Shown: positions 380-35,149, counted from the first letter of the stretch. The stretch is DNA of 64,000 nucleotides from an uncultured Holophagales bacterium (GCA_963842525.1 CAWJGT010000034.1:160001-224000); one strand, 5' to 3'. A program made the numbers and translations. The notes: a model not told the origin generated them from the letters alone.

Positions 380-1642
380 TCAAGGCTTCGTTGCCGCCTG
401 CGGGTCCCGCCTTTCAGTCCCCAGGCGCGCCCGCAGTCTGCCCGCCGGGTCTTCGAGTCGAAGGACGTAGAGGTTCGAGAAGGTGCATGGGAATACGCTC
501 AGCGCGGCGTTGAGGCTCACCATGCCGGAGAGTCCCGCGAGCTCGCCGGTTCCCCCCTTGATCGGGCCGAAGCCGCCGATCCGGAAGGCCGGCGTGGCGA
601 CTCCCGGCAGGGCGGCGCGGAAGGCGCGCCCCTCGACGAGGTTCGCATGGAGGGAGCCGAGGCTGCTCCCCGCAGGATCGTGGAGGCTGAAGACCCCTCC
701 CGTCGTCTGGAGTGGGATCACCGCTCCCGGGCTCTGGAAATCGCAATAGAACAGCGACGACCTAGTCCCCACCGGCGGACCGATCTCCGTACGGCTGCGC
801 AGCAGGGCGGAGGTCTCGAGGGCGTCGCCGAAGCGGACAAGGCGGAGGTTTTCGGAGATCTGGGCACCGATGAGCCGCCCCTCCGGCCCGAACAGGAGCC
901 GGGCCGGCCGCTGCGGATCGGTCTCTCCGAGCAGGAACAGGGTCATGATCCCCGGATCGGGGAGAACCGGGCTCGGCTCCATGGGGACGAGAGGCTCCTC
1001 GGCAGCGATCCGGCCGGCCGGATCCAGGACGCGGAAAACCAGGTGGAGACGCAGGTCGTCCGGCGGCCGGAGCAGGCCGTCCAGCACCAGCGTGGCCCCG
1101 GGGAAGGTCTCGCCCGGCAGACCAGCAAGGTCGCCGGCTCCCGCCAGGACATCGATCACGGCGCCAATCTTCAAGGCCGGCCGGCCATCGATGGTGGCCG
1201 GGAAGGTGCGCCCGGAGCCGAAGATCTGGATGCTGCTCGCCTTCCGGTCGTGGAAATCCAGCCGTCCATCGAGCAGGGCGAGCCGCTGGGCGCGGAAGGG
1301 GTTGAGGAGTGTGGGAGGAGGCACGAGCCCGGGACCGGGGACGAAGTCGTCCGGGATCGGCGTCAGCCGGCCATGGATCTCGGCGATGGGGAGCCGTCCC
1401 ATCTGGCGGCCGTCGAAACGGTGGAGCGGCGCATCGACGTGGACCGCGACCAGGAGTTGGTCCCGCAGGATCGGGAGGAGCGGGACCGGCTGATTCAGGA
1501 CCGATGGCCCGGGGGCGCTGACCACCGGGAAGCAGGCCGCCGCCGCGAGCAGGCGGGCCACCTCGGCGATCTTGCCGGCGTCCGGCGGCGCGCCGGGCGG
1601 GGTCACCCGAGACACCGTTGGCGTCGTTCTCGATCTGGGCAT
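380..1642 (-). CDS. Hypothetical beta-rich protein, possible dirigent/allene-oxide-cyclase-like barrel at C-terminus
   Basis: 420-aa ORF, last gene of the minus-strand cluster; C-terminal GFGPIKGGTGELAGLSG resembles the GGTG signature of AOC/dirigent folds. Confidence 0.55.
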   Translation of the reverse strand: MPRSRTTPTVSRVTPPGAPPDAGKIAEVARLLAAAACFPVVSAPGPSVLNQPVPLLPILRDQLLVAVHVDAPLHRFDGRQMGRLPIAEIHGRLTPIPDDFVPGPGLVPPPTLLNPFRAQRLALLDGRLDFHDRKASSIQIFGSGRTFPATIDGRPALKIGAVIDVLAGAGDLAGLPGETFPGATLVLDGLLRPPDDLRLHLVFRVLDPAGRIAAEEPLVPMEPSPVLPDPGIMTLFLLGETDPQRPARLLFGPEGRLIGAQISENLRLVRFGDALETSALLRSRTEIGPPVGTRSSLFYCDFQSPGAVIPLQTTGGVFSLHDPAGSSLGSLHANLVEGRAFRAALPGVATPAFRIGGFGPIKGGTGELAGLSGMVSLNAALSVFPCTFSNLYVLRLEDPAGRLRARLGTERRDPQAATKP

Positions 1643-1648
1643 GATCGG

Positions 1649-2053
1649 CTATTTCGACCGGGCCGCCTCGGGAGGCGACGGAACCGGTCCCCACCCGCGG
1701 GCCCCCTGCTGTTGCCGCCAAGCGGTCCCGTTCATCCAGGACGCCGAATCGACACCCAATTGCAGGATCTCGATGCCCAGGTTCCCCGCCTGCGCGACGG
1801 GGCCGCTCGGCGCGTCGTTCTTCGGGCCCAGGCCGACGAAGCTGAACGACAGGTCCACCATTGCCTGCTGCAACCGGTCGCCGGCCCGGAAGGCCGAGCG
1901 CAGCCCCGGCCCGAGCGCCTCTTCCGCGGTGCGGGTCACGGCCCCGAAGGCCTTCACCGCCCGGCGCGGAGACATCAGGTTGGTCATCTGCTCGACGCCG
2001 AACAGGGACATCGCCCACGAGAAGCTCGCCATGGAACGGGCCAATTCACGCAT
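1649..2053 (-). CDS. Small protein consisting mainly of the shared 'SFSWAM' helical module
   Basis: RBS GAGGGAGG before ATG 2053; MRELARSMASFSWAMSLFGVEQM is paralogous to three other cluster proteins. Confidence 0.75.
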   Translation of the reverse strand: MRELARSMASFSWAMSLFGVEQMTNLMSPRRAVKAFGAVTRTAEEALGPGLRSAFRAGDRLQQAMVDLSFSFVGLGPKNDAPSGPVAQAGNLGIEILQLGVDSASWMNGTAWRQQQGARGWGPVPSPPEAARSK

Positions 2054-2109
2054 GGTCGTGCCTCCCTCTTTCAACGCAAGCATAATGAAACAGGCGCTGC
2101 CCGGGGGAT

Positions 2110-2898
2110 TCAAAGAGGATTCAAGAGGAGCCCGGCGTCCCGGGCGCGGACGAGGATTTCCTCTCCCAGGCGGCCGTAGGCATGGGCACCTTTCGACCAG
2201 CCCTCGTAGTGGAAGATGGTGCGGCTGTGGGCCGGCGCCTCGGCGAGGCGGACGTTGATCGGAATCTCGGTCTGGCAGACGCTCGCTCCGTAGGTCCCGC
2301 GGAGCCCCTCCACCACCTTCCCGGTCACCGCCGTGCGGCGGTCGGCCATGGTCACGAGGATGCCCAACAGCTCGGGGATCCGTTCGAGGCGCCCGCGGAC
2401 CTCCTCCAGCGCCTCGAACAGCGCCTCCAGGGCCTCGGTGTTCAGAGGCTGCGGCACGACCGGGACGAGGAAGGCGTCGGCGGCGGCCAGGGCATTGAGG
2501 GTCAGGATCGACAGCCCGGGCGGGCAGTCCACGAGGATGACGTCGTAGTGGCGGCGGATGGGAGCGAGCGCCTCCGCAAGGGCCTTCTCCGGCTCTTTCC
2601 GGCGGGCGAGCGCGACGTCGCTGCTCGCCAGGCGCAGCGAGCCCGGCAGCAGATCGATCCTCTCGACGCCGGTGTCCCAGATCGCCTGGCCGGCAGGGAC
2701 CTTGCCGTTCAGGACTTCGGCCACCGACGGCTCGGCGTCCCGCCGGTGGATGCCGAACGAGTGGGTCGCCGAGGCTTGCGGATCGAGGTCGACGACCAGC
2801 ACCTCGAAGCCGCTCTCGGCGGCGAAGAAGGCCGCCAGATTGACCGCCGTCGTCGTCTTGCCGACGCCTCCCTTGATGTTCACCAGGGCCAGGTTCAT
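2110..2898 (-). CDS. ParA/Soj family ATPase
   Basis: Deviant Walker A KGGVGKTT, VDLDPQ, DCPPG, IPINVRLAEAP. Confidence 0.9.
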   Translation of the reverse strand: MNLALVNIKGGVGKTTTAVNLAAFFAAESGFEVLVVDLDPQASATHSFGIHRRDAEPSVAEVLNGKVPAGQAIWDTGVERIDLLPGSLRLASSDVALARRKEPEKALAEALAPIRRHYDVILVDCPPGLSILTLNALAAADAFLVPVVPQPLNTEALEALFEALEEVRGRLERIPELLGILVTMADRRTAVTGKVVEGLRGTYGASVCQTEIPINVRLAEAPAHSRTIFHYEGWSKGAHAYGRLGEEILVRARDAGLLLNPL

Positions 2899-2921
2899 GC
2901 CATGGATCCGCTCACCGCGGC

Positions 2922-4586
2922 TCACGCAGCCACATCCGGCACCATCCTTTCGGCAATCCTTTCGGCCAGGGCGGAGATCGTGATCAGGGGGTTGACCGCC
3001 AGAGCCATCGGAATGATGGCGCCGTCGACCACGTAGAGCCCCTGGTGCACTCCGCCCTCGCCGTCGAAGACCCGGCCGTCCACATCCACCACCCCGGAGT
3101 CGGCGTCCTCGCCGAGATGGCAGCCGCCCATGGGATGCGCCGTGACCAGGTTGTCGTGGTGCGTCCACGGGTTGAACCGGCCGAGGTGGACGAAGGTCCC
3201 GCCGAGGGTCCGGGCGTGCTCGCGGAGCTCGTCGTCGACCATCTTGTAGACCGGGTCCGTGAGGAGGTCCGGCCATTCGACCTGCAGGCGGTCCTTGTTG
3301 TCGAGCACCATCCTGCCCTGGGCGTTGTCGAGCGCCATGGCCAGGTACACCATCGAATGGTTTGCCGCTCCATCCGGCCGCCAACCCACCAGGTCGTCCT
3401 TGATCCGGCCGAGCTCGCGCAGCTTGTCCCCCTTGTCGGTGTCCGTACCGGTGACGGCGGCCAGCCCGGGCAGGGTGTACCGGAAAAAATCGACCAGCCC
3501 GCTGGGAAAGGTGGTGAAGTCCTGGATGGTGAACCGCTGCCGGATGGGCTGGCCGCGGTGGTACTGGATGCCGCTGACGATGGTCGGACCGGGCTGCACC
3601 TGGGCGCGCGGCGAATCCGGGTGATTGCCGTAGCCCAGGACGTTGGTGCGTTCGTTGGTGTTGTACGCCAGGGCCAGATAGTCGCCGTTGCCGCTGAAGC
3701 CGTCGCCCAGGTGGGACGAGGCGTTCAGGCCCTGCTGGACCGAGCGCAGAAGGATCTCGGTCGAGCCCAGCGTTCCGCCGGACAGGACGACGTTCTTCGC
3801 CCGCAGCCGCCGCGGCGCGCCGAAGCCTTTGAGGTGGTTGTAGCGGTAGTGGACGACGTATCCACCGCTGCCCTTCTCGATCCAGAGCACCTCGATCTGC
3901 GTGAAGATCTCGGCGCCCTTTTGCCGGGCGTAGGGGATGTAGTTCATGTACAGGGTGTTCTTGGCGCCGACGTTGCAGCCGGTGATGCAGTCGTTGCAAT
4001 TGATGCACGGCTTCTGGAGGACGCCGACGTGGTTCGGGCCGTCGACGTCGAAGTTGACGGCGATGGGCATCGGCCAGAACTTGTTGCCGTCCGGGACCTG
4101 CTGGGCCCGCTTTTCGATCATCTGCACCTTGGTGAGCTGCAGGGCGTTCGGGTGGGGCCGCACACGCAGCATCTCCTCGGCCTTCTCGTAGTACTTCCAG
4201 AGCTCGCCCGAAGCCGCCAGGTCGCGGTAGAGCCGCGGCCAGCTCTGGTTGTCGAACAGCTCCGGATCGGGCCGCAACGCGACGTTGGCGTTGATCAGCG
4301 ACGTGCCGCCGAGGCCGCTCCCCTTGAGGACGTCGATGTCGTTGCAGAGGTAGTAGTCGATGTAGCCGAGGGGATGCTTCTTGTTGCGGATGTTGCCGGC
4401 GAGCTTGCGCAGGCTGTCCGGAAAGTCGCCGGGATGCCATTCCTGGCCCCGCTCGAGCAGGCAGACCGGCAGCCCGCGTTCGGCCAGCCGCGCGGCGGTG
4501 ATGGCGCCGCCATAGCCGGAGCCGATGACGACGGTGGGATATTCGTCCTTGAGGGTGCCGCTCGCGTCCGCCAGAAGCTCGCTCAC
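2922..4586 (-). CDS. GMC oxidoreductase, cholesterol-oxidase-like
   Basis: VVIGSGYGG FAD motif, GLGGTSLINANV, CxxCxxCxxGC, HPMGGC, VNPLITISALAER; GTG start after GAGGAG. Confidence 0.88.
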   Translation of the reverse strand: MSELLADASGTLKDEYPTVVIGSGYGGAITAARLAERGLPVCLLERGQEWHPGDFPDSLRKLAGNIRNKKHPLGYIDYYLCNDIDVLKGSGLGGTSLINANVALRPDPELFDNQSWPRLYRDLAASGELWKYYEKAEEMLRVRPHPNALQLTKVQMIEKRAQQVPDGNKFWPMPIAVNFDVDGPNHVGVLQKPCINCNDCITGCNVGAKNTLYMNYIPYARQKGAEIFTQIEVLWIEKGSGGYVVHYRYNHLKGFGAPRRLRAKNVVLSGGTLGSTEILLRSVQQGLNASSHLGDGFSGNGDYLALAYNTNERTNVLGYGNHPDSPRAQVQPGPTIVSGIQYHRGQPIRQRFTIQDFTTFPSGLVDFFRYTLPGLAAVTGTDTDKGDKLRELGRIKDDLVGWRPDGAANHSMVYLAMALDNAQGRMVLDNKDRLQVEWPDLLTDPVYKMVDDELREHARTLGGTFVHLGRFNPWTHHDNLVTAHPMGGCHLGEDADSGVVDVDGRVFDGEGGVHQGLYVVDGAIIPMALAVNPLITISALAERIAERMVPDVAA

Positions 4587-4599
4587 GGTCGTCTCTCCT

Positions 4600-6000
4600 C
4601 TAGAACCTGAAGGTGAAGGAAGCCAGGCCCGAGATGATCTGTTCGGAGATCGTGAACCTGCCACCGGGGACGTTTTGCTGATTCAGTGGCGGCCCCGTGG
4701 TGCGATCCCCCCTCAGGAAGGGACTGAGCAACGGCCCCGAGACCTCGTGGCGGGGCGCGTAGTAGGCGCCCAGGCTCAGCTCGATCTTGTCGGTGGCCCG
4801 CACTCCCAGCCCGAGCGTGTAGTGGTCCTTGAACGTCGGGGGAGTCCCGAGGCTGGTGAACGCCACCTCGCTACGGATCGGCGTCTCGCTGTAGTTGAAG
4901 CCGCCCCGCAGCGTGACTTTCTCCGAGACCTCATACTCCACGCCGATGGCGCCAACCAAGATGTCGGCCCAGCCGATCCCGTTCAGGCTGCGGTCCGTCT
5001 TGAAGCCTCCCGGGCCGCCCGCACCCTCGACGCTGCTGTAGTCCACCCAGCGGGCATCGAACCCAGCCCTCCATTTCCTGCCGGGATCGTAGGCGAATCC
5101 GGCCGAGACGATCTGGGGGCCATCGAGCGCATAGCTGACAACTCTGTGCTCGCCGTAGTGTTCGTTGCGGGTTTGTGCACCGGTATTCGGATCGGTTTCG
5201 TACGGCAGGGAATTGAAGGAGTTCCACTCGTAGTCGGCGAAGTCCTGCGGACTGGTGTACGAGAACCCTACGCTCCAAGCCTCGTTCAGGCGGTAGTGCA
5301 GGCCCACCTGGACGGCCAGCGCGTAGGAGGTCACCACGTTCTCGGCAGGCGCGTAGAAGCAATCGACGACGCGGCCCGACCCAGGCGTCGGCGCGGTGCA
5401 GTCCGGCACTGCCGGTGGCAGAGGAGAGATGGACAATGCACCCTGGTAGACGACGAGACTGCCGCCGAGCGAGAGCTTCGGGCTCACCTCGTAAGCCAGC
5501 GACAGAGGGATCTTCAGGATGGCCAGATTGGTCTTGACCGTGCCAAAGCCGTCCGGCTGCGGCAGGAAGATGGGGTTGCTCGGATCCTGGGGCCAGTCGG
5601 TGCGAAATCCCGCGACTGCAAGGAGGCCGAAGCCGACGGCCCAGGGGCGACCCTGTGGATGGTAGAGCAGACCGATGGCAGGTAGGACGCCCGGCTCGGT
5701 GTCTCCTTCGGTGGTGAAGGGCCCGCGCCCGAACGGTACGTCGCTTGCAAAACTCGCCGTCGCCTTCGGTCCATCCGTGAAGACCTCCACGCCGATGCCG
5801 ACCTGGTAACCGTCGAAGCAGGTCAGCAGCGCCGGATTGACGTGCAGCGTGCCGATCACCTCGACCGGCAGCGCGGTCGACACGCCTCCGAGCGAGCTGT
5901 TGATTGCGCCCACGCCATGCAGGAGGTGCCCGTTGCCGGCCCGGACCGAAACCGTCACGAGCAAGGCCGCGATAGTAAGGAGCCCAATTTTCTTGACCAC
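4600..6000 (-). CDS. OmpP1/FadL family outer-membrane hydrophobic-compound transporter
   Basis: Signal peptide, N-terminal GxG...LGG...NPA hatch motif, alternating beta strands, C-terminal FTFRF. Confidence 0.85.
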   Translation of the reverse strand: MVKKIGLLTIAALLVTVSVRAGNGHLLHGVGAINSSLGGVSTALPVEVIGTLHVNPALLTCFDGYQVGIGVEVFTDGPKATASFASDVPFGRGPFTTEGDTEPGVLPAIGLLYHPQGRPWAVGFGLLAVAGFRTDWPQDPSNPIFLPQPDGFGTVKTNLAILKIPLSLAYEVSPKLSLGGSLVVYQGALSISPLPPAVPDCTAPTPGSGRVVDCFYAPAENVVTSYALAVQVGLHYRLNEAWSVGFSYTSPQDFADYEWNSFNSLPYETDPNTGAQTRNEHYGEHRVVSYALDGPQIVSAGFAYDPGRKWRAGFDARWVDYSSVEGAGGPGGFKTDRSLNGIGWADILVGAIGVEYEVSEKVTLRGGFNYSETPIRSEVAFTSLGTPPTFKDHYTLGLGVRATDKIELSLGAYYAPRHEVSGPLLSPFLRGDRTTGPPLNQQNVPGGRFTISEQIISGLASFTFRF

Positions 6001-6189
6001 GAAGTCCTCCGAGGCGTGAGAAAGACGATGGTACTCTGCCGTATCTTAGAGCTTCTTCTAGAATCCGACCAGCGTGGCCCAGGCGACAATAGATCCACGG
6101 AGCCAATTCGTATTCACCGATCATAAGGGGCGGGGCGGCGACCGCTTGCGGCCGCCGCTGAGCCGCCGGACAGGAATCGGAAAGCTCTC

Positions 6190-7662
6190 TTACGGATGGT
6201 GGGCGCCGGGCAGGGGCGCCTTGAGATACGGGAAGACCTCGTCGAACTGCAGCGCGTTCACCGGCACGCCGTCGGTGAAGGGAAGCGCCCGCGAAGGGGC
6301 CTCCGCGTCCGACAGACCGAAGCCCATCAGCACGCGCAGAGAGTTGTCGACTACGTCGTCACCCGGCCGCCGTCCGTTGGGATAGCCGGCCACATCGCCC
6401 CCCACGACTCCGAGAGGGCTCTGCTCTGCGGCAGGCTTGGGTGGGATCAAGGTGTTCAACCGCATGACCTCGCCCTGCGGGCCTCCCTCGTTGAGGCCCG
6501 GGAGCCCGGTCATGAAACCGACGATCAGGTCCGCCCGTGGGAAGAGGTTCGGCGCCTTCACCCCAAAGCCGCTCAGCAGGATCTCCAGGAGCTCGGGCAG
6601 GACTGGATGTGTGACGTACTGCACGATCTGCTCGTCATCCCGCGGGTGGCTGGCATTGTACAGGTCCTTGTCGGGTAGACCGATCAGGAACTCGCTGACC
6701 AGCGGATTGCCGAGGCGCGAGACCTGAATGAATTCCCCCTCCTGCAGATAGGGCTCACTGAAGGTGGGCTTCTTCTTCAGGATTCGGGTCCGCGGCAGGC
6801 GGGCGGCCGTCCAGGCCGAGACCAGGCCTTTGCCACCGCCGACGAGACACGCTGTCGGCACCTCGAGAGCGATGCTCGTGACGTTCTTCTCCTCGGTATT
6901 GGATGCCTGGCTGGCCGGATTGCCCAGCAGATTCGGCAGGTTCGCCAGATCGAAGAGGGCCCCGATATCCGCCTGGAACGGATCCTTGCGCTGGCCGACA
7001 AAAACCTTGCCATGACCGCATCCCGGTATGTCCACCTCGTGGATGAAGTGGCGGGCATATGCCTCGTAGTCCGGGATCGACTTCTCGCCGATGTTGTCGA
7101 GCGGCGCCGCGAAACGGGCCCTCCCGGTCACCGCGTGCCGGAGAGATACGATCTCGCTGGGATGGCGGAGGTCGCCGCGGATCAGGCGGATGGTGTAGGA
7201 CCGCTTAGCGTTCGTGTTCCCGGGTCTGGCGAGGGGTCCTATATTGATCAAGGGGACGGGGATGTCCACTTGCTCGCCAGGATTCCCGATCTTCAAGCTC
7301 AGCAGGGGGGAAGAATTTGTGAAGCGGAATCGGAACGTCAGATCCTCGACCTCGTCATTGTCGTTGATGATATGGATGTCATAGTTGGCGTCGCTGTCGA
7401 GCGGAAAATAGATGGGCCCGGCGAAGGCGTCCTGGAAAGGGTTGTAGTCGGCGATCAGGGTGACGAAGCCTTCTCTTCCCGCCTCGTAGCTCCGGAACAT
7501 GAAGAAATCGGTGGCATCGACCTTCGGGCTTCCGGTGATGGCGGGTGCCTCACGATGGCTGGACGCGGTCAGGGGAAGCGCCGTCCCGCCGAGCAGGATG
7601 GCAATCCATGCGACGCCGTAGAGGATCGGACGACGGGTCACATCACTGCGAAAAACTCTCAT
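6190..7662 (-). CDS. DUF4331 domain secreted protein
   Basis: Signal peptide, ASSHREAP, VFVGQRKDPF, QVSRLGNP, GYPNGRRPGDDVVD. Confidence 0.9.
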   Translation of the reverse strand: MRVFRSDVTRRPILYGVAWIAILLGGTALPLTASSHREAPAITGSPKVDATDFFMFRSYEAGREGFVTLIADYNPFQDAFAGPIYFPLDSDANYDIHIINDNDEVEDLTFRFRFTNSSPLLSLKIGNPGEQVDIPVPLINIGPLARPGNTNAKRSYTIRLIRGDLRHPSEIVSLRHAVTGRARFAAPLDNIGEKSIPDYEAYARHFIHEVDIPGCGHGKVFVGQRKDPFQADIGALFDLANLPNLLGNPASQASNTEEKNVTSIALEVPTACLVGGGKGLVSAWTAARLPRTRILKKKPTFSEPYLQEGEFIQVSRLGNPLVSEFLIGLPDKDLYNASHPRDDEQIVQYVTHPVLPELLEILLSGFGVKAPNLFPRADLIVGFMTGLPGLNEGGPQGEVMRLNTLIPPKPAAEQSPLGVVGGDVAGYPNGRRPGDDVVDNSLRVLMGFGLSDAEAPSRALPFTDGVPVNALQFDEVFPYLKAPLPGAHHP

Positions 7663-8159: not shown

Positions 8160-8777
8160 CTATCGGTTCATATGAGATCCGAGCGCCTCCCGGATCTGGT
8201 CCTGGTGGCGCTCCTCGTGGGCGGCGGTGAGGCGGAGGATCTGCGGCACGTCGTTGACCCCCAGGAAGGGGTGCCGATAGATCATCCGGGTGTAGTCGAG
8301 CTGTGGGCTCGCGGCGAAGAGGGCGCGGGTCGCGGCCACGGAGACGGCGAGCGCTTCGCGCAGCTCCCCGGCAGGCCTCCCGGGCCGCGGCTGCATGCTC
8401 TCCGCGGCGACGGCGGGAAAGAGACGGCTGCGCACCAGCGCCTCGCGCACCCCGGCGGGGATGAACAGGGTCATCAGGCCGACCGGCAGCGACAGGAACG
8501 GCAGCAGGCTCCGCGGCACGAACGCCGGGGCGATTCCCGTGGGCGTGAGCTCGCGCTCGATATAGGGTTCCCGGCCTGAGCGCGCCAGGTCGATCATCCG
8601 CGCAATGTCCTCGCGGTTGGCCGCCTCGGCCTTGAGGAGATGGTCGAGGATCTCCCCCACCGACCAGCCGCCGCGGGCGGGCCGGCGGTCCAGATCCTCT
8701 TGTCCGAGCCCTTCGACCAGGGCCAGCGTGCCGGCGCGGGCGCGCTCGAAGCGCTGCAGCTCCGCCTCGGGGATCAC
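8160..8777 (-). CDS. DinB/DinB_2 family protein
   Basis: GWSVGEILDHL, HPFLG, HEERHQDQI metal-binding His pattern. Confidence 0.85.
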   Translation of the reverse strand: MIPEAELQRFERARAGTLALVEGLGQEDLDRRPARGGWSVGEILDHLLKAEAANREDIARMIDLARSGREPYIERELTPTGIAPAFVPRSLLPFLSLPVGLMTLFIPAGVREALVRSRLFPAVAAESMQPRPGRPAGELREALAVSVAATRALFAASPQLDYTRMIYRHPFLGVNDVPQILRLTAAHEERHQDQIREALGSHMNR

Positions 8778-20593: not shown

Positions 20594-22219
20594 TCAGCCG
20601 GCGCGGCGCGCAACCCAGAGCAAAAAGCCCCCGAACACCAGGAAGAGGGCTGCGGCGATTTCGTCTCCCCGGCCGGCGAGCGCTCCCGACTCGGCGAGCC
20701 GGCGCAGCACGAGGGCCGCAGCCCCCAGCACCATCAGCAGGGAGGCGACGACCAGAGACGAGCTCCCCTGCGGGCGCGGCCGGCGGCCAGGCTCCGCGAC
20801 GACGGACCGGTCACTCCCTTCGGCGGCCAGGGTGAGCAGCTCGTCGAGCTTCTGCGGCAGCACCGACAGCAGGGCGGCGTAGCGGTCGAGCTGGCCGCCC
20901 CAGTGGTCGGGACGGATCGCGTCCCGCACCTGCGAGAAGCTCGTCAGCACCCGGACCTCCTGGAGGCCTTCGAGGAGCGCATCCATTTCGGGAGCCAGGC
21001 CCCGGGCGGCGGCGGCGGTCGCGAAAAGGCCGCGGTAGAAGACCAGCAGCTGGTAGCGCGGCCGGTAGCCGCAGGAGCGCGCGACGCGCGCATAGACGAA
21101 GAGGTGCTCGGCCAGGCTTTCGCCGCCGGCGCTCCAGGCGCCGTCGCGAAAGGGGACGATCTGCCGTAGCTGCAACCGGAGCTCCTCCTCGGAGGCGGCG
21201 GTCCCCTCCGCGAGCATTTCGGGCAGCAGGCGCGTGCAGGCCTCGTCCGGGTCGCGCGCCGCCACGGCGATCACGAACCCCAGCAGATCGGCCTGCGCCG
21301 CCGCCGGCGGCCGCACGAAAGCGGCGCCCTGCCAGCCGATCCGCCCGTCCGGCAGCACCCGGACGTCCTCGGGGCCCAGCTCGACGGGAAAGGCGCGGCC
21401 CAGGAGGGCCTGTCGCAGCCAGACGGAGCAGAGATGGCGCACGATCTCCCGCCGGTCCGGCCCCCCCAGGCTCCGCGCTCCCACCCGGCCGATCTCGCCG
21501 AGGGACACGCCGCCCAGGTCCGCGGTGGTGAGCAGCCGCGAGGTCGTCAGATCGGGGAACACTGACGGCACGGCCAGGCGCCCGAAGCCTGCCGCATCGC
21601 CAGCCAGCAGCTCCAGGGACCGGGCCACGGACCGGAAGCTCGTCTGCTCCTGGAGGTCCTGCCGGAAGCCGGCGACCGCCTCTTCGGCGGCCAGGGCGCT
21701 CCAGCCGTTGGCGGCCAGGGCCTCGGCGACGCGGGAGAGCATCTCGAGATCGAGCGCGAACGCCTCGTCCTCCTCGGTCCGGACCAGACGCAGGATCACG
21801 GGCTCGCCGCTCGCCAGCCGTCCGCGGTGGACCTGCACCAGCAGGCGGGACTCGTAGGGAGTTTCCTCCAGTGCGGCGAAGGCCTCGGCAGCGGGAGCGC
21901 CGAGCTCGGCCGCGATCCGTTCGCGCACCGCGCCGATCGGCAGCGGCGCCGCCCGGCTGCGGATCGCCGCCAGCGCCAGCCCCTCGCTCGCGGTCACGAG
22001 GTCGATCCGCGAGGCCAGGTAGGCCCCGAAGGCCGTGAAGACCGGCCCCAGCTCCTCGAGGGCCCCCTGCAGACGGTGGACGAGGGACGCGTCGGCGGGC
22101 CCGGCCCCGGGGCGCAACGGGCGGGGGCGGCGCAGCAGCTCCCAGCGGGCGAGGCAGCTCTCGACCTCGCGCCTGCGTTGCTGCGCCGCCGGCCGGCCGG
22201 CTCGCCGCGGCTGCATCAC
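20594..22219 (-). CDS. AarF/ABC1/UbiB-like pseudokinase with C-terminal TM hairpin
   Basis: ABC1 scaffold (LEELGPVF, IAAELG, VQVHRG, LAVPSV) but KxGQ, VKV, HADxHxxN and DFG are all replaced. Confidence 0.75.
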   Translation of the reverse strand: MMQPRRAGRPAAQQRRREVESCLARWELLRRPRPLRPGAGPADASLVHRLQGALEELGPVFTAFGAYLASRIDLVTASEGLALAAIRSRAAPLPIGAVRERIAAELGAPAAEAFAALEETPYESRLLVQVHRGRLASGEPVILRLVRTEEDEAFALDLEMLSRVAEALAANGWSALAAEEAVAGFRQDLQEQTSFRSVARSLELLAGDAAGFGRLAVPSVFPDLTTSRLLTTADLGGVSLGEIGRVGARSLGGPDRREIVRHLCSVWLRQALLGRAFPVELGPEDVRVLPDGRIGWQGAAFVRPPAAAQADLLGFVIAVAARDPDEACTRLLPEMLAEGTAASEEELRLQLRQIVPFRDGAWSAGGESLAEHLFVYARVARSCGYRPRYQLLVFYRGLFATAAAARGLAPEMDALLEGLQEVRVLTSFSQVRDAIRPDHWGGQLDRYAALLSVLPQKLDELLTLAAEGSDRSVVAEPGRRPRPQGSSSLVVASLLMVLGAAALVLRRLAESGALAGRGDEIAAALFLVFGGFLLWVARRAG

Positions 22220-23583
22220 GCCGCGCCCCTCCCGCCCCAGCCCTCGCGCTGGAGCTGCGCCACGAACGCCGGCAGGTCGCGGTACTCGAAGACCTCGCCC
22301 AGCCGGGCGCTCGCCTTGATCACCGGATAGTACACGTCGAGCGCGGCCGTGAACGGCCCGCGCACCAGGTGGTCCCAGAGCTCCACCAGCCGGCGGTTCG
22401 ACGGCTCCGGCTCGTACCGGCGGAAGGCTTCGAGGAGGGGGGCGTCCGGCGTCGTGTCGAAGCGCATGACCGTCGAGGAGGCCACGCCGTTGGCGAAGGC
22501 GCCGTCGCGCGCCAGCTCGTCGCCATAGGGCTCGATCAGCAGCTTGGCGAGGACGTTCGGATCGCGCTGGGAGACCAGCGTGTAGCCCCAGGCCGCGCCG
22601 GCCACCGCGCTCAGGCGGGCCTGTTCGTCCGGGGCTTCCTGCCCCGCCTGTTCGAAGAGCAACCCGTCCGAGCCCGGCAGGAAGTTGATCGCGCCGAAAT
22701 AGATCGCCCGGCCCGCGCCGTGCCAGAAGTAGCCGCGGAACTCGGGAGCGACCTCCTGCACCGCCCGGTCGATGGACTGCGTCAGCTCGGGGTGGAAGGT
22801 GCGGGTCACCAGGCCGAGCGACTCGACGGCGCAGCCGAGGTATCCCGGACGCGAGTTGTCCACGTCGAGCTCGAAGATCTGGCGCACCGTGTCGCGGAGC
22901 TGCTCGAACGAGGTCTGGTTGCTAGCGTTGCTCAGGAGGTGCTGCGCGATGGACAGACCGATGCCCGCATGGAGCATGGTCAGGCTCTTGTCCGGCAGGG
23001 CGCTCGTCCGCTCGTCGTTCAGGATGCGGTGCGGCGTCATGCCGTGATTCCAGAAGCTGTCGCCGTAGTCGTGCCCCAGGCCCTCCACCGCCCAGAGAGC
23101 GCGGAACGGGCCGAGGGCGTAGGACCGGTCGAGCAGCTCGTAGAGGGGGAATGGCAGAGTCGTGGGCACCCCGATCAGCTTGGCCACGTCGAGGACGAGG
23201 CAGAAGACCTCGCCCTTGAAGCGGATCTCCTCCAGGGCGAGCCCCCCGTTGCCCTCCGCGACCAGGCGGGCCGCCACGGCCGACCGCTGCGCCGCCGCCA
23301 TGGAGGCGTTCAGCCAGAGCGTCGGGTCCAACATCTGCGGACTGAGAAGGCTGGGCCCCATCGTCACCAGGGCGTTCTGCAGGCATTGGCCGACCTGGTA
23401 GATCTGCTTCAGCCAGCTCTCCTCGCCGAGCTGGCCCGACATCGCGCCGGTGACCGCACCGAGGCCTCCGGTGGCTTTCTGGCGCTCCCCGGCCGACGAC
23501 GACAGCAGGCGGAGGAGCTGCTGTGTGCCGTACAGCGGTGCCCCCCAGGAGAGGCTGACCGCCGATTTGGTCAGGTCGCGCAT
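22216..23583 (-). CDS. SFSWAM module + DUF1702-like domain (paralog 2)
   Basis: MRDLTKSAVSLSWGAPLYG; LWAVEGLG, LHAGIGL, FWHGAGRAIYF, FANGVASS. Confidence 0.75.
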   Translation of the reverse strand: MRDLTKSAVSLSWGAPLYGTQQLLRLLSSSAGERQKATGGLGAVTGAMSGQLGEESWLKQIYQVGQCLQNALVTMGPSLLSPQMLDPTLWLNASMAAAQRSAVAARLVAEGNGGLALEEIRFKGEVFCLVLDVAKLIGVPTTLPFPLYELLDRSYALGPFRALWAVEGLGHDYGDSFWNHGMTPHRILNDERTSALPDKSLTMLHAGIGLSIAQHLLSNASNQTSFEQLRDTVRQIFELDVDNSRPGYLGCAVESLGLVTRTFHPELTQSIDRAVQEVAPEFRGYFWHGAGRAIYFGAINFLPGSDGLLFEQAGQEAPDEQARLSAVAGAAWGYTLVSQRDPNVLAKLLIEPYGDELARDGAFANGVASSTVMRFDTTPDAPLLEAFRRYEPEPSNRRLVELWDHLVRGPFTAALDVYYPVIKASARLGEVFEYRDLPAFVAQLQREGWGGRGAA

Positions 23584-23599
23584 GGCCGTTTCCTGCCGC

Positions 23600-24169: not shown

Positions 24170-24209
24170 GGGCAGCTCCTTCCTCTCCTGCAGGTCTCTC
24201 ATACAGATC

Positions 24210-25865
24210 TCATACCAACCTGCGCAAACTGTCGACGAACAGGATCAGGGAGGCTGCGGCAATCAGGAGCTCGGCCGTGAACAGGTTGAGCCCGAGAGCA
24301 GCCTGCTCCCCGGTCATCGTGATGAGCAACGAGATTCCGAAAGCGACCGCGGCGAAGCGGAAGGCCCGCTCCGCCGGTACCGGGTCCCTGGCGGCAGGAC
24401 CGATCGCCGTCCGCCGCTCCCGTGACGTCAGCCTCTCGAGAAACCGGGTGGCACGGGCTTGCCCGTCTTGCGCCAGGTGGCCCACCGCCGCCGACCACTG
24501 AACCATGCGGTCGTACGAGACCAGTTGACTCCAGGACTCCTGGCGGAGGTAACGGTCGCATACCAAGGCCAGATACCCGCCGATGTCGAACCCCGGCGCG
24601 AAGCGGGTGATCAGGCCGTCGATGGCGATCGACGAGCGGATGTATTTGATGACGTCCCGCTCAGGCCAGATGCCGGTGGCGCGGGACAGGCGCAGCATGT
24701 CGAGCATCACCAGGGTGAAATTCTTGCGCAGGCGCCGCTCCTGCCCCTGGTAGTCGTACCACTGATCGGCCATCTTCAGCAGCCCCGCCCGGAAGCCGAC
24801 GGGATCGGAGCTCGCGTCCATGGAGGTGACCTTGAAGAAGGCCTGGCACATCCCGTCGAGATCGCCCTGGGTGTAGGAAAGAGTGAGATTGATCAGATGG
24901 CGGCGCGAATAGTGGCTGAGCACGCCGGTGATGCCGAAGTCGATATAGCCGACGACGTTTTCCGGCAGGATCATCAGGTTCGCCGGGTGGAGATCGGCGT
25001 GGAACAGGCCATGCCGGAAGGCATCGCCCAGGAAGTTCTCGATGATGTTGCGCGCGAAGCGCTGCGGGTCGAAGCCCGTCAGCTCCAGGCGGCGGACGGT
25101 GGTCTCGTCTCCCGTCTCCCGCGCCCGCAGATAGCCGAGCAGGGTGGAGCCCTCGAAGAATTCCATGACCAGAATGCGGCGCGTGGTGTGGCGGCACAGG
25201 ACCTCGGGCACCCGCTCCACCGGGTTGTCGCGGGCGTTGATCCGGAGCTGGTCCATGTAGCGGGCCTCGTTCCGGTAGTCGAGCTCCTCGGCGGTCCAGC
25301 CGATGAACTCGGAGAGCGGCTCGATCATCCAGTAGATGGCCTTGATGCGGAGAGCGCGGATCACTCGGATCATCGTCGTCATCAGACGGATGTCACCGGC
25401 GAAGTCCGTCTTCACGCTCGGCCGCTGCACCTTGACAGCGAGCTTGCATCCTTCGAGGTAGGCGATGTGGACCTGGCCGATGGAGGCGGTGGCGATCGGC
25501 TCGGTCTCGAACGACTCGAAGATCGCGGATGGCGGCGCCCCGAGCTCTTCGACGAAGGTCTGCTCGACCTCGGCGTACCCGAAGGGCGCCACGCGGTCGA
25601 GGAGCCGCGACAGCGCGTGGCAATACTCGAAGGGGATCACATCGGTTTGCAGGGCCAGCATCTGGCCAAACTTGATGAACGTGCCGCCGAGGTCCTCGAG
25701 GACGACGCGCGCGCGCTCGGGGCCGGAGAGCCCCACCTCCGGCAGGCGCCGGGCGAGACGGGGCCAGCGGGCCAGGCGCGGCCCCAGCCCGTGCGCGAGC
25801 CCGTGGAGGACGAGCACGCGGACGATCCAGCCCATCCGGCGGAGGTTGAGCCAGAAGACCCTCAT
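24210..25865 (-). CDS. AarF/ABC1/UbiB family atypical kinase
   Basis: FIKFGQ, ASIGQVH, AVKVQRP, EELDY, FHADLHPANL, IDFG intact; C-terminal TM helices. Confidence 0.92.
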   Translation of the reverse strand: MRVFWLNLRRMGWIVRVLVLHGLAHGLGPRLARWPRLARRLPEVGLSGPERARVVLEDLGGTFIKFGQMLALQTDVIPFEYCHALSRLLDRVAPFGYAEVEQTFVEELGAPPSAIFESFETEPIATASIGQVHIAYLEGCKLAVKVQRPSVKTDFAGDIRLMTTMIRVIRALRIKAIYWMIEPLSEFIGWTAEELDYRNEARYMDQLRINARDNPVERVPEVLCRHTTRRILVMEFFEGSTLLGYLRARETGDETTVRRLELTGFDPQRFARNIIENFLGDAFRHGLFHADLHPANLMILPENVVGYIDFGITGVLSHYSRRHLINLTLSYTQGDLDGMCQAFFKVTSMDASSDPVGFRAGLLKMADQWYDYQGQERRLRKNFTLVMLDMLRLSRATGIWPERDVIKYIRSSIAIDGLITRFAPGFDIGGYLALVCDRYLRQESWSQLVSYDRMVQWSAAVGHLAQDGQARATRFLERLTSRERRTAIGPAARDPVPAERAFRFAAVAFGISLLITMTGEQAALGLNLFTAELLIAAASLILFVDSLRRLV

Positions 25866-27091
25866 GCCGCGCCCCGCCGCAGCTGCGCGACATATGCCGC
25901 CAGGTCGCGGTACTCGAAGATGTCACCCATGCGGCCCTGCTGCTTGATTACCGGGTAGTAGTCGTTGAGCGCCGTCTCGGCGGGGATGCGCACCAGCCGG
26001 TCCCACAGCGCAGCGACCCGCCGGTCGGCCGGCCGATAGCGGATGAACGGCTCGATGTACGACGCGTCCGGCGTCGTGTCGAAGCGCATCATCATCGAGG
26101 AGGCGATGCCGTTGGCAAAGCCGCCGTTCTGCGCCAGCTCCTCGCCGTTGAGCCGGAGGAGCAGGTCCGCCATGATCTGCGGGTTTCGCTGGTTGACGAG
26201 CGCGTAGCCCCAGGCCGCTCCGGCCCAGGTGTTGAGGAGCGCCGCCTCGTCGGGAGCCTCGTGCCGTGCCATCTCGAAGATGGTCCAGTCCGAGCAGGGA
26301 AGGAAATTGATGAGCCAGAAATACAGCAACCGGCCCACGCCGTGCCAGAAGTAGCCGCGGACCTCCGGCGCGATCTCGCGCAGCACCTGGTCGACGGCCG
26401 GCACCATGGTCGGACGCAGCAAGCGGGTGGTCAGGCCCAGGTTTTCGTAGACCGCCCCGGCGTAGCCGGGCGTGGCGTTGTCGTGGTCGAGGCGGACGAT
26501 CTCCGCGATCATCCGGCGGATGTCCGCGGCCGGCGTGTCCCAGCGCAGCCCGCCCGGGAACCCGGCGAGATTGCCTTCGTAGGTCTTGCGGGCGATGGAC
26601 AGCCCGATGCCGGCGTTCAGCATGGGCAGGCTGCCGGGCGGCAGGTCCCTGGTGACCTCCGTCGACAGGATGCCATGCGGCGCCGTGCCCTGCTCCCAGA
26701 ATCGGTCCCCGTAGCTGTGCCCCAGACCCTCGATGGCCCAGAGCGAGTAGAACTCGCCGAGCCGCCCATAGGCATTGGCGACCATTTGCGGCAGCGGCAG
26801 GAGACCGTGGGGGGGTGCGCCGATCAGCGGTCCGACCGCCGGCACGAGCACGAAGATCGCGCCCTTGTTCCCGAGCTCCTTGGCGCTGGTCCAGACATTG
26901 CCGCCCGCCAGGAAGAGGCGGAGCCCGGCGGTCGCCCGCGAGATGGGATTCCCCGTCAGGGTGAGCGCCACGAACGGGTTCAGCACCTGGGGCGTGGTAA
27001 GCCCCTTGGCCATGCCGGCCAGCAGCGAGACCACCTCGTTGCCGAATTGGAAGGCGCCTCTGACGATACCGCTAGTCTGCTGTTCGCTCAC
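25862..27091 (-). CDS. DUF1702-like helical protein (paralog 3), first gene of operon
   Basis: LWAIEGLG, LNAGIGL, FWHGVGRLLYF, AAWGYALVN, FANGIASS; RBS GGAGGT. Confidence 0.75.
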   Translation of the reverse strand: MSEQQTSGIVRGAFQFGNEVVSLLAGMAKGLTTPQVLNPFVALTLTGNPISRATAGLRLFLAGGNVWTSAKELGNKGAIFVLVPAVGPLIGAPPHGLLPLPQMVANAYGRLGEFYSLWAIEGLGHSYGDRFWEQGTAPHGILSTEVTRDLPPGSLPMLNAGIGLSIARKTYEGNLAGFPGGLRWDTPAADIRRMIAEIVRLDHDNATPGYAGAVYENLGLTTRLLRPTMVPAVDQVLREIAPEVRGYFWHGVGRLLYFWLINFLPCSDWTIFEMARHEAPDEAALLNTWAGAAWGYALVNQRNPQIMADLLLRLNGEELAQNGGFANGIASSMMMRFDTTPDASYIEPFIRYRPADRRVAALWDRLVRIPAETALNDYYPVIKQQGRMGDIFEYRDLAAYVAQLRRGAA

Positions 27092-27222
27092 AATACCTCC
27101 CCACCTTGCGGCTCTCCGACGCCTGTCTGGGCGTGATCCTCGCGCAAGATCCAGGCCTGCGCAGAGCTGCGCCCTTTGTCAGAGTACGGTTTAGCTCTGC
27201 TTTACGCAAGGAGCGCGGGGGT

Positions 27223-27898
27223 TCAAAAGAGATCCAACGCCTCCCGCGGCTCGCGCAGGAGGCCCATCTCGTAGGCGAGGCGCACGGCGTCGCGGCGCCG
27301 GTGGACCCGCAGCTTCCCGAGGATGTTGTGCACGTGATTCTTCACCGTCTGCACGGTGATGTGGAGCGCGTGGGCAATCTCCTTGTTGCGCAGACCGCGG
27401 GCCATGAGAGAGAGGGTCTCGAGCTTCCCGAGCGGTGAGCGGATCGCAGCCCTCGGGCAGCGCGATGACCCGGCGGTCCTTCTCGAGGGCGGCGATCCGG
27501 TCCAGGACGGCGGCTGTGATCCGCGGCGAGGAGTGGACCTGGCCGTCGCGCAGGAAGCGGAGCGCCTCGATCAGCCGGTCGGGCGAGGCGCTCTGGAGGA
27601 GGTAGGCTGCCGCGCCCGCCTCGATGAACTCGAGGACGCTTTCGTCCTCGCGCTCCAGCCCGAGGACCATGATCTGGGCTTCAGGAAACCGCTCGCGCGC
27701 GGACCAGGTCAGAGAGAGGGCCTCTGCCGGGCTGTACGACGCGTCGATCAGGATGATCGAGGGAGGGTCCTGGCTTTCCGCGGAAGTGGCACAGAGGCGG
27801 AGCCCCTTCTCCGCCGGCAGAACCGCCTCCAATGCTTCGACGAAAACCCGATCCCCTCCCAGGATCATCACGGAGATGGTCGGCTCCACTTCCTCCAT
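27223..27898 (-). CDS. NarL/LuxR family response regulator with apparent +1 frameshift near 27425
   Basis: REC-like N-terminus in one frame; LTARE continues as LETLSLMARGLRNKEIA...TVKNHVHNIL in another. Confidence 0.85.
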
Positions 27899-27900
27899 GA

Positions 27901-28578
27901 CTACGAGCCCCGCCGCCCCTCTTGCAGCCAACCCTTGGCAAAGGCGTGCCGTACGGCTGCCCAGCGGTTCGGAACGCCGAGCGTCTCCAGGATCTTGTGG
28001 ACGTGGTTCTTGACCGTATGGACGGACAGGAAGAGGCGCTGGGCGATCTCCTGGTTGCTCAGGCCCCCGGCCATCAGGTGCAGGATTTCCATCTCCCGCG
28101 CCGTGAGCTCCAGCACGTCGAGCCGCTCGCGCCGCCGCCGCTCGCGGCCGAGCTCGCCCAGGCGGGAGAACAGGATGTGCGCCACCCGCGGCGAGCAGGC
28201 CATCTCGCCGCGCTCGACCAGCTCCAGGGACGACAGCAGATCCGACAGCGGCTGATTGCGAAAGAGAAAACCCTTCGCTCCGCTCTGCAGGTATTCGAGA
28301 ATCTGCTCCTCGGAATCGTTACGTCCCAGGAGCAGCAGCTTGACGTCCGGGAAGCGGTCCCGCAGGCTCCGGATCCTCTGCGGACCCTCCCCATCAAAGA
28401 GATCGAGGCTCGCCACCAGGATGCCAGGACCCTGCGCCGCGAGCAGGCCCGACATCTGTTCCCAGCTCCCGGCTTCGCCGACCGCCTCGAAACGGCCGTG
28501 CTGGCAGAGCGCCGAAGCGAGCGATTTGCGGAAGAGCTCGTAAGGATCGGCGATCAGGAGCCATAGAGGTCTCCGCAT
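27901..28578 (-). CDS. NarL/LuxR family response regulator (atypical receiver)
   Basis: LTAREMEIL...GLSNQEIA..L.LSVHTVKNHV HTH. Confidence 0.9.
   Translation of the reverse strand: MRRPLWLLIADPYELFRKSLASALCQHGRFEAVGEAGSWEQMSGLLAAQGPGILVASLDLFDGEGPQRIRSLRDRFPDVKLLLLGRNDSEEQILEYLQSGAKGFLFRNQPLSDLLSSLELVERGEMACSPRVAHILFSRLGELGRERRRRERLDVLELTAREMEILHLMAGGLSNQEIAQRLFLSVHTVKNHVHKILETLGVPNRWAAVRHAFAKGWLQEGRRGS

Positions 28579-33385: not shown

Positions 33386-35149
<1,764 letters not shown>

Follow-up and report, generated by a model that had tools for sequence, protein, structure and literature searches.

Gene content of the locus

We analysed a window of 64,000 nucleotides from an uncultured Holophagales bacterium (GCA_963842525.1, CAWJGT010000034.1:160001-224000), whose genome comprises 9.95 Mb in 34 contigs with 3.4% contamination. 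At positions 380 to 28578, counted from the first letter of the window, lies a cluster of 22 genes (g01 to g22), every one of which is on the minus strand according to GC3 frame analysis and open reading frame (ORF) listing. The cluster is real, conserved, operon-like and undescribed, and its carriers are mostly uncultured soil Acidobacteriota. A sequence-only reading of the same DNA had counted about 22 co-oriented genes and proposed a lipid-associated system, possibly a compartment or lipid body; its gene count and orientation hold. Intergenic spacing ranges from -65 to +497 bases. Exact ATGA overlaps occur at 10031, 16460, 17761, 18663 and 25862, which accounts for five of the six couplings listed in that reading, whereas the sixth, at 22216-19, reads GTGA. 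There is an additional four-base overlap, TTGA, at 2110. The first 28 kb of the window have a G+C content of 62-72%.

As shown in Table 1, the families with Pfam matches above cut-off are patatin (two genes), DUF4331 (two), ABC1 (two), FadL/Toluene_X, GMC (N- and C-terminal domains), DinB_2, AAA_31 and a LuxR response regulator. The single FadL, GMC, DinB and ParA genes named earlier were all recovered by Pfam, with cholesterol oxidases nearest to the GMC protein. BLASTP also confirmed each of the paralog sets. Identity by BLASTP is 48% within the DUF4331 pair, 40% within the patatin pair and 27% within the ABC1 pair. The two proteins sharing a KKYLRV domain (KKY; g13 and g15) are 39% identical over 122 aa, and a trio that we call the T family (g14, g17 and g20) shows 34-48% mutual identity. 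A further recurrent element, the SFSWAM module (SFS), was found by BLASTP in g02, g11, g17 and g18 at E values from 1e-7 to 8e-20. Neither Pfam nor NCBIfam assigns a family to ten of the proteins: g01, g02, g12, g13, g14, g15, g17, g18, g20 and, aside from a sub-threshold GDSL match, g11. The earlier inventory had passed over g01, g12 and the body of g11, all of which are core parts.

No named pathway with this content was matched in Pfam, NCBIfam, PADLOC or the open literature, as the sequence-only reading had stated. Likewise, no description of the cluster or its new families was found in the open literature (subscription journals and bioRxiv supplements were not covered).

Table 1. Genes of the cluster, followed by other features of the window
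Feature	Position	Strand	Basis or remark
g01 tandem allene-oxide-cyclase/dirigent-like beta-barrel protein (predicted), 420 aa	380..1642	-	Fold of relative
g02 small SFS protein, 154 aa	1649..2113	-	BLASTP to g11, g18, g17
g03 ParA/MinD-type P-loop ATPase, accessory	2110..2898	-	Pfam AAA_31 158 bits
g04 GMC flavoprotein, nearest cholesterol oxidases, accessory	2922..4664	-	Pfam GMC_oxred_N and GMC_oxred_C
g05 FadL/TodX-type outer-membrane channel for hydrophobic compounds, accessory	4600..6000	-	Toluene_X 96 bits
g06 DUF4331, signal-peptide-like N-terminus, accessory	6190..7662	-	Pfam 405 bits; 48% to g10
g07 DinB_2 superfamily, accessory but recurrent	8160..8777	-	Pfam DinB_2 1.2e-16
g08 patatin-like phospholipase A (PatA)	8796..10076	-	Pfam Patatin 120 bits
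g09 patatin-like phospholipase B (PatB)	10031..11272	-	Pfam Patatin 106 bits
g10 DUF4331, signal-peptide-like N-terminus, accessory	11289..12851	-	Pfam DUF4331 384 bits
g11 giant protein, 1196 aa, SFS module, linker and weak SGNH/GDSL-like region	12873..16463	-	hhalign; Pfam sub-threshold
g12 putative START/Bet v 1-like lipid-binding protein, 434 aa, anchor gene	16460..17764	-	Fold of relative
g13 second KKY protein, 301 aa, proline-rich tail	17761..18666	-	39% to g15 over 122 aa
g14 T family, 383 aa	18663..19814	-	BLASTP 37% to g17, 34% to g20
g15 KKY protein, 203 aa	19970..20581	-	Family alignment, 23 sequences
g16 ABC1a, degenerate UbiB-like, likely pseudo-enzyme	20594..22219	-	Pfam ABC1 77 bits
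g17 SFS module and T domain, 455 aa from Met at 23583	22216..23583	-	Frame open up to 23706
g18 small SFS protein, 200 aa	23600..24202	-	BLASTP to g02, g11, g17
g19 ABC1b, UbiB-family atypical kinase/ATPase, catalytic motifs intact	24210..25865	-	Pfam ABC1 183 bits
g20 T family, 409 aa, all-alpha, without SFS module	25862..27091	-	48% to g17, 34% to g14
g21 second LuxR-type response regulator, frameshifted	27191..27931	-	Domains in separate frames
g22 NarL/LuxR-type response regulator, receiver and GerE helix-turn-helix, upstream cluster edge	27901..28578	-	Pfam GerE 9.1e-18, Response_reg 3.8e-9
T2SSE ATPase with MshEN domain, then fasciclin-domain protein	33386..35811	+	Just beyond the regulators
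Defence-island-like trio: TIR_2 and EAD11, nSTAND1 NTPase, SIR2_2 and EAD11	36094..39592	-	G+C 57-59%
AbiV-type HEPN protein	49575..50384	-	
RND efflux operon: AcrB-type pump, HlyD-type adaptor, OEP outer-membrane factor	50714..56394	-	
758-aa protein, TIR_2 domain and PASTA repeats	56123..58396	+	

Conservation across genomes

We used g12 as the anchor for comparative counts. It is present in 13 of 31 related genomes, and its surroundings consist of the same families, in largely the same order, in all nine of the other genomes examined. Scanning one genome per species by pattern yielded 72 g12 loci, nearly all from metagenome-assembled genomes (MAGs) of Acidobacteriota, with single records from Zixibacteria, Planctomycetota and Verrucomicrobiota outside this phylum. 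Neighbours were counted with tblastn (E <= 1e-5) at the 41 loci having full 10-kb flanks, an approach that underestimates small divergent proteins. Patatins were near g12 at 30 of these 41 loci, ABC1 and SFS at 28 each, the T family at 27, g01 at 24, KKY at 18, g11 at 17 and DinB at 9. FadL accompanied g12 at three, the LuxR regulators at two, GMC and ParA at one each (ParA at 3/72 loci overall), and DUF4331 at none (2/72 overall). The sequence-only reading had named a failure of the families to co-occur in other genomes as the observation that would count against it; in fact they recur together elsewhere in conserved order, so this objection does not arise. Its proposal that FadL uptake and ParA positioning are parts of the system is not borne out by the same counts.

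Two loci show the conserved arrangement most compactly (L041 and L042; hereafter L numbers denote g12 loci, C numbers contigs, G000 the window's genome and G001 onward the related genomes). Their order is ABC1-SFS-T-ABC1-KKY-T-KKY-g12-patatin-g11-SFS-g01, including the T gene placed between two KKY genes (the g14 position), and it equals that of the window minus an insert of DUF4331, patatin, DinB, DUF4331, FadL, GMC and ParA. Only about half of 380-28578 is the conserved unit, and DUF4331, ParA, GMC and FadL are local additions. A small SFS gene directly follows ABC1b in eight of the nine other genomes examined, with ABC1a in that place in G010. The succession of a small SFS gene and a g01-like gene recurs in G001, G002, G010, G011, L041 and L042. 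Orthologs of g11 at 37-50% identity occur in G002, G014, G019 and G030.

The unnamed families largely travel with the anchor. Among the 31 relatives, SFS occurs in 13 genomes, 12 of which also carry g12; the T domain occurs in 13, with 10 shared; and KKY occurs in 12, all of them g12-positive. Within the window's own genome, all matches to SFS, T and KKY are confined to the window or contig C2. The spread of the cluster is patchy: half of the family (9 of 18 genomes) is positive, against 6 of 301 genomes sampled across the phylum. This latter, even sample of the phylum marks g12 as rare, and four of its six matches are full-length.

Additional copies and partial versions of the cluster were also observed. 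Contig C2 (10,947 bases; L039) holds a second colinear copy, g12-KKY-T-KKY-ABC1a-T-SFS-ABC1b plus an acyltransferase that adjoins its ABC1b, at 45-69% identity and with tblastn matches broken over frames. Decay of a paralog, poor assembly or a contaminant strain could each account for it. Elsewhere in this genome, C24:183691-186125 (L024, L037) encodes two tandem g12 paralogs at 37-40% identity, with no other cluster family within about 20 kb on either side; tandem g12 pairs also stand beside patatins in G002 and G014. Four relatives lacking g12 (G006, G012, G016 and G027) carry an acyltransferase with a nearby T-domain or SFS gene and neither g12 nor KKY, for example at G016:C4:137299-140901 and G012:C285:2271-4303. 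Such loci suggest that the cluster grew from a smaller, wider-spread base module by the addition of g12, g01, KKY and patatin.

Unbiased clustering of the remaining ORFs in the 72 loci gave 18 recurrent families to scan. Several recurrent neighbours are absent from the window: a PlsC-type acyltransferase (23 of the 72 loci), FG-GAP/UnbV_ASPIC proteins (18), a halogenase-like flavoprotein (14), an RPE65 oxygenase (12), redoxin (9) and an amine-oxidase-like protein (8). GMC was counted at seven loci and TIR-AAA at eight. The acyltransferase is found in all 13 g12-positive relatives, usually adjoining ABC1b, and also in 10 g12-negative ones. In the window's genome, RPE65, halogenase-like, amine-oxidase-like and PlsC-type acyltransferase genes and several FG-GAP/UnbV_ASPIC genes lie together at C34:641.9-667.6 kb, 455 kb from the cluster; in many relatives, genes of these families are found immediately beyond the ABC1b end of the cluster.

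Evidence for a proposed lipid-handling machine

The two ABC1 proteins match PF03109 (cut-off 22.9) at 183.2 bits (g19, ABC1b) and 77.4 bits (g16, ABC1a). Using the motif names of COQ8 work (KxGQ, the Ala-rich loop, the VAVK lysine, HxDxHPxN and DFG), we found KxGQ, AxASxGQV, VAVK, HADLHPAN and DFG kept in 28-33 of 33 ABC1b orthologs. The positions of ABC1a equivalent to KxGQ, the A-rich loop, HxDxHPxN and DFG are unconserved across 42 orthologs, and by its sequence ABC1a is probably a pseudo-enzyme. Both proteins carry two C-terminal hydrophobic segments resembling transmembrane helices, at residues 501-540 in ABC1b and 485-536 in ABC1a.

Exhaustive HMMER searching of 1.84 billion representative proteins identified 337 relatives of g12, several of them 750-870 residues long. 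Three metagenome proteins (P0128, P0131 and P0183) are natural g01-g12 fusions, and another (P0223) joins g12 to an alpha/beta-hydrolase. The N-terminal half of P0131 is 37% identical to g01 (E 9e-72) and its C-terminal half 42% identical to g12. We predicted the structure of P0131 from a 61-row alignment, obtaining a predicted local distance difference test (pLDDT) score of 90.0. The best match to its g12-like half (residues ~460-846) was the START domain of MLN64 (1em2_A; Z 12.3, root-mean-square deviation 4.1, 205 of 214 residues), and STARD4 (6l1m_A, Z 12.1) and StAR (3p0l_A, Z 12.0) also matched. These top three matches cover 194-205 residues of targets that are 200-214 residues long. A carotenoid-binding START protein matched at Z 11.3, and Bet v 1-type proteins and aromatase/cyclases at Z ~9 (4xrt_B and 4xrw_A, 9.0; 3tfz_A, 8.6). 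At the level of predicted fold, on a relative of 42% identity, g12 would belong to the START/Bet v 1-like (SRPBCC) proteins. Sequence searches with g12, which carries an REIGPKY motif, gave no START, Polyketide_cyc or similar Pfam match even at E up to 10, and an 18-member g12 profile found nothing among PDB sequences. A phage portal was entertained for g12 from an Atlas match with a score of 0.93; the match involves only 123 shared features, was judged to be chance, and is argued against by the START fold of the modelled relative.

The g01-like half of P0131 is predicted to be a pair of beta barrels. It resembles the dirigent proteins 8th2_B and 6ooc_A (Foldseek probability 1.00, TMt 0.56, E 3.5e-3 and 6.5e-3, respectively), allene oxide cyclase (AOC; 1z8k_A, VIA Z 8.5 over model residues 30-311) and the Diels-Alderase-type PloI4 (Z 7.8). 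Although g01 has no Pfam match, its predicted fold, again on a relative (37% identity), places it among AOC/dirigent-like barrels. Together, the two predicted folds strengthen the lipid theme of the sequence-only reading.

The patatins match PF01734 (cut-off 27.7) at 120.3 bits (g08, PatA) and 105.6 bits (g09, PatB). PatA orthologs retain the GxSxG serine in 44 of 46 cases and the DGG aspartate in all 46; the corresponding counts for PatB are 20 and 19 of 24.

The SFS module is an N-terminal element of about 85 aa, and its hidden Markov model finds 145 ORFs in the window and 92 loci. These fall into small proteins, T fusions, about nine proteins whose tails measure 500-630 residues, and 14 giants of the g11 type. 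When 15 long SFS fusions were scanned, eight carried Abhydrolase_1, two of which also carried an ABM monooxygenase domain. The module spans residues 1-101 of g17 and 26-105 of g11 (hhalign probability 99.5% and 99.2%), and in g02 the internal Met of MRELARSM is its probable start. A 17-sequence alignment resolves g18 into the module, a variable linker and a C-terminal tail. Most small SFS proteins, including g02 and excepting g18, end in GWGPxP after the variable linker, which looks like a short docking motif. Neither the SFS profile nor g18 showed similarity to Pfam or PDB entries.

In the KKY protein g15, a hydrophobic helix at the N-terminus is joined by a low-complexity linker to a conserved domain of some 110 aa whose last residues are KYLRV; a profile from 23 aligned sequences matched nothing in Pfam or PDB. 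Hhalign across the unnamed families found the SFS module to be their sole link. The giant g11 consists of an SFS module, a Pro/Gly/Ala-rich linker, an SGNH/GDSL-like region and a C-terminal stretch of about 600 aa. It had no match among PDB sequences, and its C-terminal half showed no similarity to the recurrent neighbour families. For g20, 145 relatives were found, the 120 listed all being without a Pfam domain and the named ones coming from Acidobacteriota/Thermoanaerobaculia MAGs; g20 itself matched no Pfam or PDB sequence.

Our preferred reading, to which we give an even chance of being right, is that the cluster encodes a conserved acidobacterial machine of the UbiB-plus-START type, which extracts, carries and remodels a hydrophobic membrane molecule. 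We infer its substrate, direction and physical assembly. Its published basis is twofold. According to a preprint, overexpression of ubiB partly rescues deletion of ratA, which ties UbiB/Coq8 to START proteins (RatA/Coq10) (bioRxiv 10.64898/2026.05.04.722385), and a further article describes COQ8 as an ATPase delivering insoluble lipid intermediates (PMC13418538).

By analogy with published work on COQ8 and UbiB, a membrane-anchored engine of ABC1b and ABC1a would use ATP to pull a lipid or isoprenoid from the inner membrane; the motifs are intact in ABC1b and lost in ABC1a, and each protein has its two C-terminal hydrophobic segments. The lipid would then be handed to soluble carriers, the START-like g12 and the double-barrel g01, as their modelled folds suggest. 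Patatins, whose Ser-Asp dyads are intact, and T proteins may next hydrolyse or modify it, and SFS-tagged hydrolase-like proteins would join them in this processing. Finally, SFS, which is observed in fusions, would act as a shared three-helix N-terminal tag that gathers these proteins at one site, with KKY proteins as possible adaptors.

The local insert, comprising FadL, two secreted DUF4331 proteins, GMC, DinB and ParA, suggests that the window's copy of this pathway is coupled to the traffic of hydrophobic compounds across the envelope. FadL (g05) recurs jointly with GMC in L043, L070, L072 and G014. The GMC protein g04 reaches 186 bits against the NCBIfam cholesterol oxidase model NF058674 (cut-off 850), and cholesterol oxidases (E ~1e-28) are its best matches among PDB sequences. 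Similarly, g03 scores 108 bits against ParA_partition NF041546 (cut-off 180) and passes AAA_31 at 158 bits. The hydrophobic N-termini of g06 and g10 are signal-peptide-like; g06 had no match among PDB sequences, and the open literature searched held nothing on DUF4331 or on the combination of ABC1 and patatin in Acidobacteria.

Two regulators border the cluster, as they do in G002 and G010. Of the two LuxR proteins expected from the sequence-only reading, g22 is intact, with NCBIfam MadR/NarL-like matches under their cut-offs, whereas g21 is split by a frameshift. The receiver of g21 is in one frame and its helix-turn-helix (LETLSLMARGLRNKEIA...) in another, tblastn placing the latter at 27244-27426. 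Its ortholog in G010 is intact at 220 aa, and the frameshift either marks g21 as a pseudogene or reflects an error in the assembly.

Several observations weigh against the lipid-handling machine. The co-occurrence loci were selected via g12 in related genomes and are not independent samples. Both ABC1 proteins fall short of the UbiB equivalog TIGR01982 (240 bits for g19 and 121 for g16; cut-off 487.55) and of NF003404 (182 and 89 bits; cut-off 667), and on these sequence scores they are classed as family members, not UbiB orthologs. The START and barrel folds were modelled on a metagenome fusion 37-42% identical to the window proteins, not on the window proteins themselves. Moreover, the aromatase/cyclases (Z ~9), AOC, PloI4 and dirigent proteins to which these models are similar are enzymes; both folds also serve as cyclases, and catalysis is thus equally compatible with the predictions as carriage. 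In g11, Lipase_GDSL_2 (PF13472) reaches 19.6 bits against a cut-off of 32.9, and the putative block I, which we assigned from sequence, reads G-[ED]-G-L, with Gly replacing the nucleophile Ser in 18 of 19 sequences. The T domain (by structure search), the KKY domain (by profile search) and the C-terminal 600 aa of g11 (by sequence search) gained no assigned fold from PDB. Lastly, the tailoring enzymes of relatives (RPE65, halogenase-like and amine-oxidase-like) adjoin the cluster, which leans towards a metabolite pathway.

Alternative readings and known systems

That metabolite pathway, a possible yet doubtful alternative, would be dedicated to biosynthesis or tailoring of a specialised lipid-derived or polyketide-like small molecule. 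Patatins or acyltransferases would supply or load an acyl or isoprenoid precursor, and the START-like (ARO/CYC-type) and AOC/dirigent-like proteins would be cyclases. T, GMC and DinB, together with the halogenase, RPE65, amine-oxidase-like and ABM enzymes of relatives, would tailor the product, FadL and DUF4331 would serve in export or uptake, and the ABC1 pair would be limited to substrate supply or regulation. The fold matches of modelled g12 to aromatase/cyclases and of modelled g01 to AOC, PloI4 and dirigent proteins are consistent with this assignment. So are the recurrent neighbours of the 72 loci (halogenase-like, RPE65, amine-oxidase-like, GMC and FG-GAP/UnbV_ASPIC), the ABM monooxygenase on 2 of the 15 SFS-hydrolases tested, and a patchy distribution such as is seen in secondary metabolism.

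Also in favour of this pathway, the invariant polar residues of the T family (E167, E254, W287-H288 and R292) look catalytic in the alignment. An AlphaFold model of g17 built on 41 rows (pLDDT 88.9) is all-alpha, with three N-terminal helices followed by a helical domain. The T domain had no Foldseek match in PDB at E <= 0.001, and the best VIA rows (Z 7.3-7.6) mostly involve the N-terminal helices (1-80, 1-140) and barely cover it, so we claim no new fold.

The sequence-only reading had called these three proteins DUF1702-like. They are indeed mutual paralogs, but the Pfam assignment fails: PF08012 matched none of 41 T-family members at E up to 0.1, and a search of the whole genome at E up to 10 found only C9:346064-346972 and no T protein of the window. 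What is left is a remote profile similarity. The T profile aligns collinearly with 14 genuine DUF1702 proteins of relatives over 236 columns (E 2.7e-4) at a probability of only 41%, and with a single DUF1702 sequence at 42%. The two share Gly-centred motifs, and the Atlas clusters nearest to T have PF08012 on 11-13% of their members. From these sequence comparisons, T is a possible distant relative of DUF1702 and not a member. DUF1702 is labelled an enediyne biosynthesis protein in the literature (PMC7692728).

Against a metabolite pathway, no polyketide synthase (PKS), non-ribosomal peptide synthetase, fatty-acid synthase or terpene synthase is found among the 22 genes or the 18 recurrent neighbour families scanned. 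The halogenase, RPE65, amine-oxidase and acyltransferase genes of the window's genome lie 455 kb off, which implies that the window's cluster works without them as neighbours. The heavily duplicated parts that look non-enzymatic (four SFS, two KKY), as well as the pseudo-kinase, are more in keeping with a structural or handling machine than with a linear pathway. If true, this alternative would define a new class of lipid-derived natural product pathway.

The dedicated compartment or lipid body of the sequence-only reading is not supported as stated, and stands as one reading among three. On this view, the genes would encode what covers a discrete body of neutral lipid and the enzymes that work there, making it a bacterial counterpart of the plastoglobule or lipid droplet. 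The covering would consist of SFS and KKY proteins attached by amphipathic helices, SFS-tagged enzymes, patatins and ABC1 would sit on the surface, and ParA would position the body in this genome. One N-terminal module on otherwise unrelated proteins, in 145 ORFs and four length classes, does look like surface targeting, and the gene content, together with RPE65 in 12 of the 72 related loci, parallels the plastoglobule proteome as described in one article (PMC12587418).

A wax-ester/diacylglycerol acyltransferase (WS/DGAT) gene, which 23 of 31 relatives share with the window's genome, makes neutral lipid synthesis plausible, but this gene does not track the cluster, being found in 11 of 13 cluster-positive and 12 of 18 cluster-negative genomes. 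ParA is near g12 in just 1 of the 41 full loci. No fibrillin/PAP, phasin, oleosin or perilipin family is among the Pfam and NCBIfam matches of the cluster proteins, and the SFS part of the g17 model is three helices of modest confidence (pLDDT 40-78). We consider a lipid body improbable. Also unlikely is the stronger claim that the cluster is the full protein set of a previously unseen bacterial lipid organelle, a plastoglobule-like body of neutral lipid or isoprenoid, in which an SFS coat would recruit hydrolases, T enzymes and START/AOC-barrel carriers, UbiB and pseudo-UbiB would load it from the inner membrane, and ParA would position it in some genomes. Were a lipid body confirmed, it would be a new bacterial organelle.

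Patatins could alternatively be membrane-destroying effectors controlled by kinase-like proteins, making the cluster an anti-phage defence or conflict system. The patatins weakly match NF041079 (44-49 bits) and PADLOC Effector models (E 1e-11 to 1e-12), the distribution among relatives is patchy, and a stretch with TIR, nSTAND1, SIR2 and AbiV genes lies 8-21 kb away, with TIR-AAA in 8 of 72 related loci. Nevertheless, these patatin scores are far under the 200-bit equivalog cut-off and cover the model partially. Besides patatin, the 5027 models of PADLOC-DB 2.0 revealed only generic kinase (PD-T4-6) or P-loop similarity and left 16 of 20 proteins unmatched. Known defence systems also look unlike this conserved group of some 12 genes, with its lipid-binding folds, acyltransferase and hydrolase fusions, and we regard a defence role as very unlikely.

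The lipid-handling machine would matter for the UbiB/ABC1 family, whose mode of action is a long-standing question and whose partners are poorly defined. The cluster offers a partner list in one operon: an apparently active UbiB-family protein with its degenerate twin, a predicted START-fold protein, AOC-like double barrels that some organisms fuse to the START protein, lipases and a shared tag that resembles a targeting signal. With it, the model of extracting and handing over a lipid becomes directly testable with few proteins. The cluster further defines families without a Pfam model, namely SFS, KKY, g01, g12, T and g11, mostly in uncultured soil Acidobacteriota, a phylum known for unusual membrane lipids.

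Among known systems, enediyne-type cassettes resemble the cluster in the 236-column alignment of T with DUF1702 and in the FG-GAP/UnbV_ASPIC proteins of 18 of 72 related loci. They differ in that PF08012 misses the window's T proteins, the hhalign probability is 41% only, the window has no enediyne PKS or thioesterase, and the genuine DUF1702 gene of this genome lies elsewhere, on contig C9. The SFS module, a short helical N-terminal element on small proteins and diverse lipid-active enzymes, can be likened to helices that target droplets or membranes. We take the likeness of the SFS module and the KKY N-terminus to phasins, perilipins and oleosins to be a functional analogy; for SFS, neither sequence nor profile searches found a similar Pfam or PDB entry.

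Plastoglobules are described as containing six of the eight ABC1 kinases of Arabidopsis, an esterase, the RPE65-family enzyme CCD4 and large amounts of structural lipid-binding proteins, which recruit enzymes (PMC12587418). The cluster shares with them several ABC1 proteins, predicted lipid-binding beta barrels and lipases or acyltransferases, with an RPE65-family oxygenase in its relatives. In contrast to plastoglobules, it has no fibrillin homolog match and belongs to a bacterial cytoplasm. The resemblance is one of content, not orthology, and the cluster is rare in its own phylum.

By analogy, the core most likely works like the pair of UbiB/COQ8 and Coq10/RatA, in which a motif-intact UbiB-family protein is likewise encoded with a START-fold protein. 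Relative to the coenzyme Q pair, the cluster has no ubiquinone biosynthesis gene among its Pfam and NCBIfam matches, both of its ABC1 proteins are under the UbiB equivalog cut-off, and g12 is about 430 aa long with no Pfam START or polyketide-cyclase match. It pairs the putatively active ABC1 protein with a degenerate paralog, and also contains patatins, AOC-like barrels and four or five families that Pfam does not model.

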